From Chlamydiota bacterium (GTDB lineage: Bacteria > Chlamydiota > Chlamydiia > Chlamydiales > Rhabdochlamydiaceae), in the NCBI GenBank assembly GCA_013288895.1, contig JABDAY010000002.1, forward strand, positions 16,154 through 80,153: a DNA stretch of 64,000 nt, read 5' to 3'. The notes beneath the pieces were generated by a model. It was given only the letters and a program-made list of their open reading frames with translations, was not told where the DNA came from and searched no databases. Within the stretch, counting starts at the first letter, position 1; the number at the start of each line of letters is the position of its first letter. The position numbers and the translations under genes are program-made. Shown here in pieces: positions 5,154 through 9,325 of the stretch.

Positions 5154-5582
5154 TTATCCTTCCTTTATCGGGATCTTGCGCGCTTCGTTCTTTTTGGTTT
5201 TGGAGAAGGTGATTTTTAGGATCCCGTTTTTGCAGAAGGCTTCAGGGGGGATGGTTTCGTCGATGGTGCCGGGGACTGCAACGCGGTAAGAGAAGCTGCC
5301 TGTAGATTTGCGGTAGTATTTTTTTGTTTTGTCTTCATGTTCGTCTTCTTTTTCAGCTTTAATCCAAAGAATCCCTTTTTCAAAGGTCATTTCAATTTCG
5401 TTTGATTTAATGCCTGGAAGGGCGGCTTCTACAAAGACGTGATCTTCATCTTCATAGACGGAAAGACCTGAGGATTCTGAGAAGTCTTGCAGCCATTCGT
5501 CTTCATTTTCGCCGAGTAGAGAAAAGGGGAAGCGGAGAGAGGGAAAAGACCACATCGATCTAGGAATAAGTTTTTTTGTCAT
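5154..5582 (-). CDS. Small heat-shock protein (Hsp20 / alpha-crystallin family)
   Basis: VFVEAALPGIKSNEIEMTFEKGILWIKAEKE..SFSYRVAVPG..AFCKNGILKITFSK is a typical ACD core. An alternative start at 5555 (MWSFPSL) would remove the overlap with the upstream ORF. Confidence 0.85.
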   Translation of the reverse strand: MTKKLIPRSMWSFPSLRFPFSLLGENEDEWLQDFSESSGLSVYEDEDHVFVEAALPGIKSNEIEMTFEKGILWIKAEKEDEHEDKTKKYYRKSTGSFSYRVAVPGTIDETIPPEAFCKNGILKITFSKTKKNEARKIPIKEG

Positions 5583-6381
5583 AATGGGCCTCCATGCGTA
5601 TATTTATTTGCTCTTCTACATAAGATGTCAGTTCGGGACAATGTTTTGCAATCCATTTTTTAAAGGGGAGTGTTTCGTGAAGAAACTCCCTTTTTGTTGT
5701 AATCCAAGGAGCCTTATAAAAAGAGCCTAGGTCGATTTCTACGGCTGTTTCTCCAACAAAGCCAAAGTTTCGAAAAATCAGGGGGTCTCTATCCCCAACT
5801 CGTTTCTCACATTTACGAATGCTTAGATCAAATAGAGAAGAGATCCTCCTCTTTGCTCCTTCGAGATCATTATTTTTGATCAAAGTTTGTAAAGTTGGAT
5901 AGATGGGCTCAGCCTTTTTTTGAAGGACAAATTCAATCGAGTCTGCGTCTATGAAATGTGCGTTGTGGATGTTGTCATAAAGTAAAAGGGTTTTTTCTAG
6001 AAAATCTGTTTTATTTAGGTGTGCGTATATGACACCGGTTTCTTCTTGAAGCAGATTAGAAGCGATTTTGCAGCTCTCGAATATAAAGGCGGTTTTATTT
6101 GGGAAGTCTGTCAATCTATGATGTTTAAAAACTTTAAGAACAGTTGTCTGGTCTTTGCCCAAGAAAGCAAAAAATTGGGCCCCTTTGCCTAAAAAAGTGA
6201 AGGGCTGAGATAAGGTTTGAATGACTGTCTCTGAGGGAGTGGGTGTTTCCCATTCAGAGTTAAAGGGAAGGACAGAGTGAATTTTATATTCTCGAAAACC
6301 TTGAGTTTGAAAATAGCAAAATCTCTCTACGAGAATAAAGCTGACGATAAAAATAAGGATGTTTTTAATTCTTTTCTTCAT
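5560..6381 (-). CDS. Membrane-anchored protein with protein-kinase-like motif order (K1)
   Basis: N-terminal anchor MKKRIKNILIFIVSFILV. It then carries LGKGAQFFAF (Gly loop), VLKVFK (Lys), HLNKT, GDRDPLIFRN (catalytic-loop-like) and EIDLGSF (DFG-like). It is paralogous to K2 and K3. Confidence 0.55.
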   Translation of the reverse strand: MKKRIKNILIFIVSFILVERFCYFQTQGFREYKIHSVLPFNSEWETPTPSETVIQTLSQPFTFLGKGAQFFAFLGKDQTTVLKVFKHHRLTDFPNKTAFIFESCKIASNLLQEETGVIYAHLNKTDFLEKTLLLYDNIHNAHFIDADSIEFVLQKKAEPIYPTLQTLIKNNDLEGAKRRISSLFDLSIRKCEKRVGDRDPLIFRNFGFVGETAVEIDLGSFYKAPWITTKREFLHETLPFKKWIAKHCPELTSYVEEQINIRMEAHYDKKTYS

Positions 6382-7228
6382 CTAGTTTCTCTTTTAAATA
6401 GCGGGCAAGCTCGGAGGGCAAATGGTCGTGAAGTCTTTTGGTTATAAGCGATAGGTCATGGAGGTAGGTCTCTTTACGGGTGCGCCCCATATCTTTAGCA
6501 AATCTGCCTACGTCGATAAAGATCACTTTGCCATCTAGAACACCAAAATTTCTATGAATGACAGCATCTTCGTCTACAATCCCTTTTTTGGAGCGATGAA
6601 TGATTGAACTGATGATATCTGATATGAGGAGCTTTGCTTTATCCATTTCTTGATTTTTAATGAGGGAGTCGAGGTGGGGGTAGATATTTTCAGCTTTTCT
6701 CTGGAGGATGAATTCCATTTTGCCGAGGTCGAGCTTATGCGAGATATGGAGGGGGTCGATGATTGTGGTTTCAAGATAAGGTTCATGAGTTTTATTGAGA
6801 TGTACAAGGAGGAGCCCTGACTCATCTTTAAGTTCGTTAAATGCAATTCGATAGCTATTAAAATCACGCTGAAGGTTCAACGCCAGTTTAGTTTCTTTCT
6901 TTTTGAAATAATTGCGTGCAAAAGAGGGGAGAGGCAAGCCAGAAAATTGGTAGGGCATCGACCTCCGATCAAGTTTAAAGAGCTTCAAGACATATTTGTT
7001 GTCTTCAGATAGAAAGACGAAGCTCTGTCCTCCTTTATTAAAATAGGTGAACTTTTGCGCGAGGGCTTTTTCTACCTCATCTCTATCGTAGTCATTTGTC
7101 TCCCATTCAGGATGGTAGCTAAAATTGGACTCGGTACGGAGCACAGTAAACCCAGCTGTTTTTTCTCTACAGAAATGGGCTGCATGCCAAACGATGAATA
7201 CGAGAATGAAAAATTTAATGTAGCGCAT
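6365..7228 (-). CDS. Membrane-anchored kinase-like protein (K2)
   Basis: Start chosen at MRYIKFFILVFIVW (7228). Motifs are FNKGGQSFVF, YVLKLFK, HLNKT, VDEDAVIHRN and FIDVGRF. Confidence 0.55.
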   Translation of the reverse strand: MRYIKFFILVFIVWHAAHFCREKTAGFTVLRTESNFSYHPEWETNDYDRDEVEKALAQKFTYFNKGGQSFVFLSEDNKYVLKLFKLDRRSMPYQFSGLPLPSFARNYFKKKETKLALNLQRDFNSYRIAFNELKDESGLLLVHLNKTHEPYLETTIIDPLHISHKLDLGKMEFILQRKAENIYPHLDSLIKNQEMDKAKLLISDIISSIIHRSKKGIVDEDAVIHRNFGVLDGKVIFIDVGRFAKDMGRTRKETYLHDLSLITKRLHDHLPSELARYLKEKLDEEKN

Positions 7229-8015: not shown

Positions 8016-8236
8016 TTGGATACTTAAGTATATCAACGCTTTTTTTATGATCAATATTAAAGCTTTCTTCAATACCTGTCAAAAGATACATTTTCTGAGA
8101 GCTGCTTGAGCTAGAGGGAGTTACGCTATTTATTTATTTGTTATTTTTTAAATTTATTTTTATTATATACTTTAATTATTATTAGAGTTATAATAATTTG
8201 AAAAGCAATTAATTTATTTATTTACGGAGATAAATT

Positions 8237-9325
8237 TTGGCAGCAGCTTATTTTACAAGTTTTTATAGATCAGTGGATCTTACGTGTAGTTTACATGAAA
8301 CGATTCAATCCTATCGAGTTGCAGATCAAGCAGTAAAAACCCTCATAGAAAGAGACGGCATTAAAACTGAAGAACCTTATAAAATAGGGGAAATTCCTCA
8401 ACTAAAAGCGTTAGGATGGCAACTTCTTTCTTCAGAATGCCTAAAGCATCCTGCTTTACTTGGTAAGTTTATCAAAATCGCTAATTCAGACTCTGGAAAT
8501 AAGTGTGTAGGCAATGGGAATCACAAGGCAAAACCAGCCCTGCGCGATAATCTACGTCGACCTTTTTATGCGCAAAAAATACGTGAATCTATGATACACC
8601 TAGGCATGCCTCCTAATGTCCCCCATAAATATATTGTTTCTATTAATAAAGACCGATTTGTGGTCGTGAGTGAAGCGATAGACATAATGTCTAAAGATGA
8701 AAATTTGGATCATTGGGAGAAGTTATATCACGAGGGAAAACTACAAGGGACGATTAAAAAAATATGCAAACTTATTAGGTCGACTGCCCTTGCAGATGCA
8801 AATATATCCAATGTCTGCTTCACAAAAAGTGGAGAAATTGCCGTGGTTGATACAGAGCCTATGGGTCTTTATACAGAAGATTTTCCAGAGGATCTTATAA
8901 GAAAGATCGATCGTTACATACAGCTAGGGCTAGAACAGCTTAAAGACTCTTTTGCTAAGCAGATGGGAATTAGAAAAGTAGATTACGAAACTTCCCTCTG
9001 GAGAAATGCAAAAATGAGAGGTGCGGAGTATAATCGTGAAGTATACGATAGAGAAGCAATGGACCCCTCTATTGCAAGATATCAGCCGATCATGGAAGCG
9101 TTCGCCCAAGCCGTAAATGAAGAGATTCAGCTTTATAATGACCTTCCTCAAGCAACAAGGGAAGCAGAAATACGAAATGGTACTGCAGTTAACACAAAAT
9201 GGAACTGGCCCCTACTCATATTCAGCATCTCTCTTTTTCCACCTTTGATTCTGGGGATTTATTCGTGTCTTATGACTTGCTGTTCTAAAAAGGAGCCTGA
9301 GGACAGACACCTCTGTACCAATTAA
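8237..9325 (+). CDS. Tail-anchored protein with APH/choline-kinase-like catalytic motifs (K4)
   Basis: TTG start 6 nt after GGAGA. Motifs are LGKFIKIAN, VVVSEAIDI and LADANISNVCFTKSGEIAVVDTEP (D-x4-N followed by a hhD-x-E motif). The C-terminal TM is WPLLIFSISLFPPLILGIYSCLMTCC. Confidence 0.45.
   Translation: MAAAYFTSFYRSVDLTCSLHETIQSYRVADQAVKTLIERDGIKTEEPYKIGEIPQLKALGWQLLSSECLKHPALLGKFIKIANSDSGNKCVGNGNHKAKPALRDNLRRPFYAQKIRESMIHLGMPPNVPHKYIVSINKDRFVVVSEAIDIMSKDENLDHWEKLYHEGKLQGTIKKICKLIRSTALADANISNVCFTKSGEIAVVDTEPMGLYTEDFPEDLIRKIDRYIQLGLEQLKDSFAKQMGIRKVDYETSLWRNAKMRGAEYNREVYDREAMDPSIARYQPIMEAFAQAVNEEIQLYNDLPQATREAEIRNGTAVNTKWNWPLLIFSISLFPPLILGIYSCLMTCCSKKEPEDRHLCTN

Follow-up and report, generated by a model that had tools for sequence, protein, structure and literature searches.

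We have analysed a 64,000-nucleotide stretch of the genome of a Rhabdochlamydiaceae member (Chlamydiota bacterium, GCA_013288895.1, contig JABDAY010000002.1, positions 16,154 to 80,153), referred to here as the window, and within it a row of three tandem genes, K1 to K3, together with a neighbouring gene, K4. The modelled structure showed that K1-K3 have a protein-kinase-like (PKL) superfamily fold. We consider that these proteins probably represent an uncurated family of small PKL enzymes of ~270-300 amino acids (aa) that is organized in ancient tandem arrays; what is new is the previously uncurated K family, within a superfamily that is known. An earlier note on this DNA, made from its letters and open reading frames (ORFs), had described a cluster of four membrane-anchored proteins with kinase-like motifs. 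The array of three and the kinase-like character of K4 were borne out, whereas K4 proved to be of a separate family that adjoins the array only in this lineage.

We obtained the structural evidence from an AlphaFold2 (AF2) model of K3, which was built from a 48-sequence alignment without templates and reached a pLDDT of 95.1 and a pTM of 0.90. When this model was compared with the PDB using Foldseek, only kinase folds appeared among the top 50 matches, in keeping with the kinase-like order of motifs read in the earlier note. The best matches were AceK (E=3e-5, TMq up to 0.48) and PRPK/Bud32 (E=6.6e-5, TM 0.46/0.51), and further matches included Rio2 (E=2e-4, TM 0.43-0.47), WbdD (E=3.4e-4), PknB (E=8.9e-4), JAK2 and CDK2. 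In the viral library BFVD, nearly all named matches were kinases; only five nidovirus replicase polyproteins and a single entry labelled "2'-5' RNA ligase superfamily" had other names.

The K3 model consists of two lobes. The N-lobe contains three strands, the third of which carries the Lys of the VLK motif (K86), followed by helix alphaC and two more strands before the hinge, and a beta-hairpin at residues 133-147 is inserted ahead of the hinge strand. The C-lobe contains helices alphaD and alphaE and a short strand leading to D199-K-D201, with N207 immediately preceding the next strand and D219 coming behind the strand after that. Accordingly, the order of secondary structure around the catalytic residues is the canonical kinase arrangement. 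After the DxG motif, K3 has only two helices, with neither an activation segment nor a GHI subdomain, and the domain can therefore be described as minimal, akin to that of RIO and Bud32. In the model, the C-lobe resembles those of RIO, Bud32, AceK and WbdD more than those of Hanks-type kinases.

The conservation of the catalytic residues was followed in 184 K copies from 42 related loci and the window, which were aligned to the family hidden Markov model (HMM) and are given here in K3 numbering. G70, K86 and Q156 are found in every copy (184/184 each), D201 and N207 in 183 each, D219 and F153 in 182 each, and G221 and D138 in 180 each. The catalytic Lys, Asp, Asn and Asp are thus kept in 182-184 of the 184 copies, which is the conservation expected of the residues that the earlier note had taken as catalytic. 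G70 is the invariant Gly of K-G-[AG]-Q, situated between strands 1 and 2. D199-K-D201 aligns with the H-R-D of classical kinases, and its first position is Asp in 145 of 184 copies and Asn in 35 more. D201 and D219 lie 18 residues apart, as do D166 and D184 of PKA. All motifs that had been read in K1-K3 are present, namely the KGAQ/KGGQ Gly-loop, VLK(V/L/F)F(K/R), HLNKT, D-x-D-x5-N and (I/V)D(L/V)G(S/R)F; HLNKT is less conserved across the family (H123 in 159 and N125 in 110 of 184). Since the set of residues for ATP-Mg binding and phosphotransfer is kept in nearly every paralogue, we predict that the K proteins are active enzymes rather than pseudokinases. Outside the canonical kinase motifs, the family conserves H123, D138, H144 (160/184), F153, Q156 and a post-anchor F-C-x3-T-x-G-F, which contains the single conserved Cys (C21, 134/184). 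On the basis of their conservation, these residues may be candidates for the recognition or the site of the acceptor.

A profile search yielded 384 K homologues of ~270-320 aa. No Pfam domain was present among the 120 of them that were listed, and the informative source names were all "hypothetical" except for one JGI label, "glycosyltransferase". When K1-K3 and 48 K members were scanned, no Pfam hit at E<=1 and no NCBIfam match was obtained, and the K profile found no match at E<=10 among all PDB sequences. No description of the K family was found in the literature. The family had not been recognized in the earlier note either, and these searches agree with it. The scan for related loci, which was limited to a pattern and used a three-sequence K alignment, returned metagenome-assembled genomes only. 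Among 40 genome loci, 29 were labelled Chlamydiota, 6 Verrucomicrobia and 5 "uncultured bacterium"; five of the six Verrucomicrobia-labelled loci show the same synteny, and the Chlamydiota loci span Parachlamydiales, Simkaniaceae, Rhabdochlamydiaceae and others. The K family is apparently specific to chlamydiae.

At each locus, one to nine K genes stand in tandem and point in the same direction. When compared with longer arrays, K3 is closest to their first copy and K2 to a middle copy, while the best match of K1 is the copy at the hsp20 end, or the one next to it, in the arrays of loci L002, L021, L030, L041 and L043. Although this positional orthology is rough, the position-wise best matches indicate that the duplications are old and that this genome has retained three copies. 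Some members of ~500 aa (P0003-P0008; L048 and L049) are K-K fusions behind a single N-terminal anchor, and in L048 a lone fusion has a SpoU methylase/enolase pair on one side and unrelated genes on the other. In L041, the nine-copy array lies on a 2.2-Mb chlamydial contig and is interrupted on the opposite strand (13410-14519) by an IS605 OrfB/TnpB-type gene with a Cas12f-like TNB domain.

The features of the window that concern the array are collected in Table 1. The ORF map confirmed that K1-K3 are tandem paralogues, with 36-40% pairwise identity and all on the minus strand, whose overlapping frames run into hsp20: the overlaps are 17 nt for K1/K2, 14 nt for K2/K3 and 23 nt for the end of K1 and hsp20. 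Because these co-directional overlapping frames end in hsp20, K3-K2-K1-hsp20 looks like a single block, and from its layout it is probably one transcription unit. The K-family HMM scores K1 at E=1.5e-92. The 287-aa form of K2 corresponds to the protein-collection entry P0002, which comes from the window's own contig, and in this protein a 24-residue insertion follows the VLK strand. For K3, the ATG is the likely start because a promoter-like TTGACA-17-TAATAT site is located at 8082-8054, that is, inside the ORF extension and just outside the intergenic region. In the direction of K4, a plus-strand promoter-like TTGTTA/TATTAT is found at 8138-8166.

Table 1. Array genes, catalytic codons of K3 and neighbouring features, in window coordinates.
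Feature	Positions	Strand	Description
GT2 fragment	7-660	-	family-2 glycosyltransferase with a membrane anchor; PF00535, E=3.5e-21; 55% identity to the GT2 of L043; cut by the window start
hsp20	5154-5582	-	Pfam HSP20 PF00011, E=2.7e-14; last gene of the K3-K2-K1-hsp20 block
K1	5560-6381	-	273 aa; hydrophobic anchor at residues 7-18, then a minimal kinase-like domain
K2	6365-7273 (ORF)	-	287 aa from the probable start ATG 7228 (MRYIK...)
K3	7215-8015	-	266 aa from ATG 8015; ORF reaches TTG 8072; first array gene
K3 catalytic core	7359-7760	-	K86 codon at 7758-7760; codons computed from ATG 8015
K3 D219	7359-7361	-	codon position from ATG 8015
K3 N207	7395-7397	-	codon position from ATG 8015
K3 D201	7413-7415	-	codon position from ATG 8015
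K3/K4 intergenic	8016-8236	.	AT-rich, ~220 bp, divergent; promoter-like sites in both directions
K4	8237-9325	+	362 aa; TTG start, GGAG 8 nt upstream; divergent from K3
Secreted neighbour	9377-10201	-	274 aa; apparent cleavable signal peptide (MLMHKAILMLLTLPLLIQAAA/LEE); no known domain

The N-terminus of the K proteins shows a basic stretch, a hydrophobic run free of charges (median length 12 residues), and then (E/K)-R-F-C. The net charge is +3.6 on the N-side of the run against +1.45 in the 15 residues on its C-side, and the N-flank charge exceeds the C-flank charge in 81% of 97 K sequences. The hydropathy of this segment equals that of the cleavable signal peptide of the secreted neighbour. 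Two cleaved forms were considered and rejected. A lipoprotein would use the conserved Cys, but the residues that precede it at -3 to -1 (E/K, R/K and F) make no lipobox; cleavage by signal peptidase I would need small residues at -1/-3, and these are missing, as is an A-x-A site. The simplest reading of the N-terminal sequence would be a Sec signal-anchor that stays uncleaved and places the domain outside the cytoplasm, and we put its chances at even or a shade better. The charge bias fits the extracytoplasmic location that the earlier note gave to the K1-K3 domains, while the location itself is something we infer. Considering that the K-K fusions have one anchor, both of their domains should be on the same side of the membrane. 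An Inc-type bilobed hydrophobic domain of ~40-60 residues is not seen in these proteins: K1-K3 have a single N-terminal run of ~11-19 residues and K4 one C-terminal segment.

Related loci show a recurrent order, in which the phosphate transporter gene PiT on the opposite strand is followed by a secreted protein of ~275 aa, the K array, hsp20, GT2, Vut_1 and TGT. The secreted protein, for which only a weak DUF6130 match was obtained in the window, is the most conserved neighbour of the array. It is located upstream in 18 of the 30 loci with room; in related genomes it directly precedes the first K gene, and in the window K4 separates it from the array. Nine related loci, as well as the window, have an hsp20 gene downstream of the array, and this gene follows in 8 of 26 loci. 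GT2, a generic polysaccharide-type GT-A enzyme with a membrane anchor, is found downstream in nine related loci (L001, L008, L017, L018, L026, L038, L041, L043 and L049) as well as in the window, and in L043 and L049, where hsp20 is absent, its start overlaps the last K gene. When the flanking ORFs were clustered across the 42 loci, no universal partner gene emerged and the synteny was at the level of clades only, with the secreted neighbour in 18 loci, PiT in 12, hsp20 in 10, GT2 in 9, and Vut_1 and TGT in 8-9. Therefore, the context suggests, without proving, a role in the envelope or in glycoconjugates.

The GT2 proteins of L043 (15804-17519) and L049 (4711-6429) have ~572 aa, and their second half of ~275 aa (FSYNRPLQL...VDD) gave no Pfam match. 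In L026, L018 and L001, the tblastn matches to the two halves are 30-70 bp apart and may represent separate genes.

Based on the model and the anchor, we propose a mechanism for the K proteins. ATP-Mg would be held between the lobes, D201 would act as the base, and the gamma-phosphate would be passed to an acceptor. The N-terminal segment would serve as an uncleaved Sec signal-anchor that tethers the domain to the inner membrane, on the periplasmic side more likely than the other according to the positive-inside rule. The acceptor would most likely be a membrane-proximal component of the envelope, such as a glycoconjugate sugar, and the paralogues may have diverged toward different acceptors. 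WbdD, WaaP and KdkA, which are PKL enzymes of lipopolysaccharide (LPS) and O-antigen pathways, are sugar kinases. Because of this analogy, together with the anchor and the recurrent downstream GT2, a sugar of an envelope glycoconjugate is our leading guess for the acceptor. The window also contains the gene of the Kdo transferase WaaA (20519-21972; PF04413, E=1e-57), followed by tRNA genes at 21807-21879 and 21899-21972. Its presence indicates that the LPS core of the organism contains Kdo, a point of relevance to the hypothesis of sugar kinases.

The ATP that chlamydiae import from the host through nucleotide transporters of the inner membrane has to pass the periplasm first, so that a periplasmic kinase is conceivable in these bacteria. 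Taken to its full extent, the proposal would have the K proteins as periplasmic signal-anchored kinases that use host-derived ATP on distinct glycan, lipid or protein targets of the envelope, as a counterpart of the secretory-pathway kinases; taken as a whole, we consider this conceivable but rather unlikely. If the domains face the periplasm, they would carry out ATP-dependent chemistry outside the cytoplasm of a Gram-negative cell, which is plausible only through the uptake of host ATP, and they would add a new aspect to the biology of the chlamydial envelope. Such extracytoplasmic kinases, if real, would be possible only through the energy-parasitic lifestyle.

Several observations weigh against our main reading of the K proteins. 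The TM-scores of K3 to solved kinases are 0.35-0.5, and for this reason the assignment is made at the level of the PKL superfamily and to no known family. In the catalytic loop, the D-to-N spacing is non-canonical, being 6 in K1-K3 versus 5 in classical kinases, exactly as the earlier note had counted it. No invariant Glu or other acidic residue could be identified in alphaC of the 184 copies (E116 in 154; E111 is E or D in 122). Phosphotransfer is inferred, and ATP hydrolysis and nucleotidyl transfer are the alternatives to it. With regard to the membrane, a 19-residue Kyte-Doolittle window reaches at least 1.6 in 72 of 120 K members, which corresponds to a borderline transmembrane helix, and the hydrophobic run often comprises just 11 uncharged residues, which makes the topology and stable anchoring uncertain. 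A kinase in the periplasm needs ATP there, and such a pool is conceivable but putative. With regard to the context, GT2 is found in only 5 of the 22 loci whose downstream sequence extends for at least 2.5 kb, its association could be a matter of inherited synteny, and hsp20, the tightest neighbour of the array, is presumably cytoplasmic.

Some of these observations are shared by a rival explanation, in which the K domains are tethered by the N-terminal hydrophobic helix to the cytoplasmic face of the inner membrane, use cytoplasmic ATP and phosphorylate lipid-linked glycan or LPS intermediates of the neighbouring GT2, like WaaP, KdkA and WbdD. We regard this as possible, although doubtful. The supply of ATP would be no problem, many members have a hydrophobic run that falls short of the length of a classical transmembrane helix, and the hsp20 of the same block presumably works in the cytoplasm. 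WbdD is among the structural matches of K3, the downstream GT2 sometimes overlaps the last K gene, and the strongly basic C-flank of the GT2 anchor suggests a cytoplasmic catalytic domain for that enzyme. On the other hand, the charge bias of the K proteins predicts an N-in/C-out orientation, the segment resembles the h-region of a Sec signal peptide with the hydropathy of the neighbour's cleavable signal, and no Pfam match to the Kdo/WaaP family was obtained.

The signal-peptide-like N-terminus could also be that of exported effectors, which would pass through Sec and then through type II secretion or outer-membrane vesicles to targets in the host or the inclusion lumen, the array being an effector expansion such as amoeba-associated chlamydiae commonly have. 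Eukaryote-like genes are abundant in the window (MYND) and in related loci (F-box, LRR, WD40, RING), and intracellular bacteria commonly have effectors with a kinase fold (PMC9758233, PMC11696984). However, bulky residues occupy -1/-3 before the conserved ERFC, with no A-x-A site, and the conserved motif directly behind the hydrophobic run suggests that the N-terminus is retained. In addition, the array is old and conserved by position, and it is set among housekeeping genes (PiT, recF, dnaN, TGT) in a synteny that extends over Parachlamydiales, Simkaniaceae and Rhabdochlamydiaceae; fast-evolving effector expansions look different from it. On balance, we judge export as effectors to be quite unlikely.

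A further explanation keeps the kinase fold but changes the chemistry, either to an ATPase or switch, as in RIO2 and Bud32, or to a nucleotidyl or other transferase, as in the SelO-type AMPylases and NiRAN. The closest structures include Rio2, PRPK/Bud32 and AceK, and the viral ones include nidovirus replicase polyproteins, which carry the NiRAN domain. The unusual D-x5-N spacing, the lack of a clear alphaC Glu and the extra conserved His, Asp, His and Gln beyond the canonical motifs point in the same direction. Nevertheless, the full canonical set of Lys, Asp, Asn and metal-binding Asp is invariant, which is the signature of gamma-phosphate transfer, and SelO-type enzymes are not known to have the catalytic-loop Asp; we therefore regard non-kinase chemistry as improbable. 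Finally, that the K genes encode inactive structural or regulatory pseudokinases, or are spurious ORFs, is hardly credible, as nothing beyond the missing annotation speaks for it, and the 384 homologues, the catalytic residues kept in 182-184 of 184 copies and the confident AF2 model speak against it.

K4, which had been grouped with K1-K3, was treated separately. Its DANISN (D187..N192) followed by VVDTE (D205, E207), as described earlier, is present, with K80 as the Lys and an N-terminal SFY motif. Three long helices follow the catalytic core, and the C-terminal anchor was also found as a single hydrophobic transmembrane segment at ~323-349. The AF2 model of K4 has a pLDDT of 90.1, and its top 50 Foldseek matches are all kinases but weak (Rio2 at E=1.3e-3, PI3K, OSR1; TM 0.2-0.3). 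An exhaustive HMMER search identified 41 relatives of K4, most of them with a C-terminal hydrophobic segment and the N-terminal S-F-Y motif, and the family shares W-x-I-K, (D/E)-x-L-x-R, G-x-x-D-A-x-x-x-N, I-D-T-E-P and E-K-C-A-R-I-G-L. Across 42 K4 homologues, the conservation of D187, N192 and D205 is 90% or higher, and K80 is present in nearly all full-length ones. A large protein search with the K4 alignment returned three proteins and added nothing. When the K4 profile was compared with PDB sequences, the only match was a designed coiled-coil protein, which matched the transmembrane/helical tail.

We rejected K4 as a paralogue of K1-K3, as BLASTP gave E>20 and the two families reached a probability of 0.2% in hhalign; nevertheless, the stretch aligned by hhalign superposes the catalytic motifs. 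The K4 gene is absent from all 42 related K loci, including that of the close relative L004, in which ~330 bp separate the secreted neighbour from K3, and K4 homologues occur in unrelated genomic contexts. K4 thus represents another, small family of kinase-like proteins that is independent of the K family and tail-anchored, and its adjacency to the array is lineage-specific.

The earlier note had called K4 APH/choline-kinase-like, and this comparison did not hold beyond a resemblance of motifs. K4 has D-x4-N and then D-x-E, resembling the Brenner and choline-kinase motifs, but it has no His before the Asp, it has a C-terminal membrane anchor, and its top 50 structural matches are Rio2, PI3K, OSR1 and similar proteins, with neither the APH nor the choline-kinase family among them. 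Neither Pfam APH (PF01636) nor Choline_kinase (PF01633) matched K4 or its 41 homologues, and no meaningful family emerged when K4 was scanned against Pfam and NCBIfam. We also dropped DUF648 (PF04890, a chlamydial putative Inc family) as a classification of K4; it matched one of 42 members at E=0.0013, below the gathering score, and did not match K4 itself.

GT2 and hsp20 are direct neighbours in related genomes; in the window, lineage-specific genes (754-5027) lie between them. These are a D-Ala-D-Ala dipeptidase gene (Peptidase_M15, 754-1323), two paralogous minus-strand ORFs of unknown function that are 42% identical (1834-2376 and 4407-5027), and two plus-strand genes (2510-3292 and 3472-4410) for low-complexity Ala/Ser/Pro/Gln-rich proteins with highly basic C-terminal regions, which end in the common tail AMAAAAASAPST..VS. 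The idea that this insert and K4 arrived as one block found no support: a tblastn search with the insert proteins, in a database that excluded the K4-homologue loci L045-L047, found a homologue only for the M15 peptidase, in L002. Elsewhere in the window, tandem plus-strand genes at 13723-14889 and 14915-16051 encode MYND zinc fingers (PF01753, E~1e-7), a eukaryote-type domain that is typical of host-interaction genes in amoeba-associated chlamydiae, and a giant minus-strand ORF of 2981 aa (54866-63811) has DUF3638 as its sole Pfam match (E=2.8e-10, residues 1985-2147). The array flanks in L041 and L043 contain genes for F-box-like, LRR, WD40 beta-propeller, RING finger and Peptidase_C65 (otubain) proteins.

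Among known systems, RIO and Bud32/PRPK are similar to the K family in that they are bilobal proteins of ~230-290 aa whose C-lobe ends soon after the metal-binding Asp, without an activation segment, and they are among the best structural matches of K3. On the other hand, no sequence-profile similarity connects them with the K family, RIO1 (PF01163) does not match, and their catalytic loop is H-x-D-x4-N, whereas that of the K family is D-K-D-x5-N. The K family further differs from them in its N-terminal anchor, its inserted beta-hairpin with conserved Asp and His, and its chlamydial tandem arrays. AceK, another bacterial atypical PKL and the match with the best E-value, is a soluble bifunctional enzyme of ~570 aa with a regulatory domain, and it shares neither sequence similarity nor context and architecture with the K proteins.

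WbdD, WaaP, WaaY and KdkA are comparable as bacterial PKL enzymes that associate with the membrane and modify glycans of the envelope beside glycosyltransferases; the K array is recurrently followed by a GT2, and it is the kinase domain of WbdD that matches K3. In contrast to them, K1-K3 and 48 members match neither PF06293 nor PF06176, and the K family has a signal-like N-terminal anchor with an N-in bias and as many as nine paralogues in a genome. The secretory-pathway kinases of eukaryotes (Fam20, Four-jointed, POMK, VLK), of which Fam20B and POMK phosphorylate glycans, parallel the K family in concept, with a signal-anchor, putative in the K proteins, ahead of a kinase-fold domain that is predicted to be away from the cytoplasm. 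However, a specific similarity to this group (Fam20, POMK, VLK), with which the earlier note had drawn a comparison, was not found: none of these kinases is in the top 50 structures of K3, no PDB sequence matches at E<=10, and the K domain, besides being far smaller, lacks a conserved pattern of disulfides. The Hanks-type Ser/Thr kinases (PknB, chlamydial PknD, Pkn1) belong to the same superfamily, and PknB matches K3. Their features are missing from the K family, which has no PF00069 match, activation loop, APE or GHI subdomain, and which has DKD-x5-N and ~240 aa after the anchor.

In summary, on the tests run, the K family lies outside the Hanks-type, RIO/Bud32, Kdo/WaaP, APH/ChoK and Fam20-type kinases. 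Structure prediction is still adding new kinase-fold families (PMC9758233, PMC10870513, bioRxiv 10.64898/2026.09.18.752743). On a conservative reading, the K proteins are unannotated, never-studied enzymes that are conserved in many environmental chlamydiae and are in no curated library searched. Compared with the systems above, the K family is distinguished by loci that, among those with a named lineage, are nearly all from Chlamydiota, by old arrays of up to nine intact paralogues and by Sec-type anchors, and its modified catalytic loop and extra conserved residues point to an unusual acceptor.

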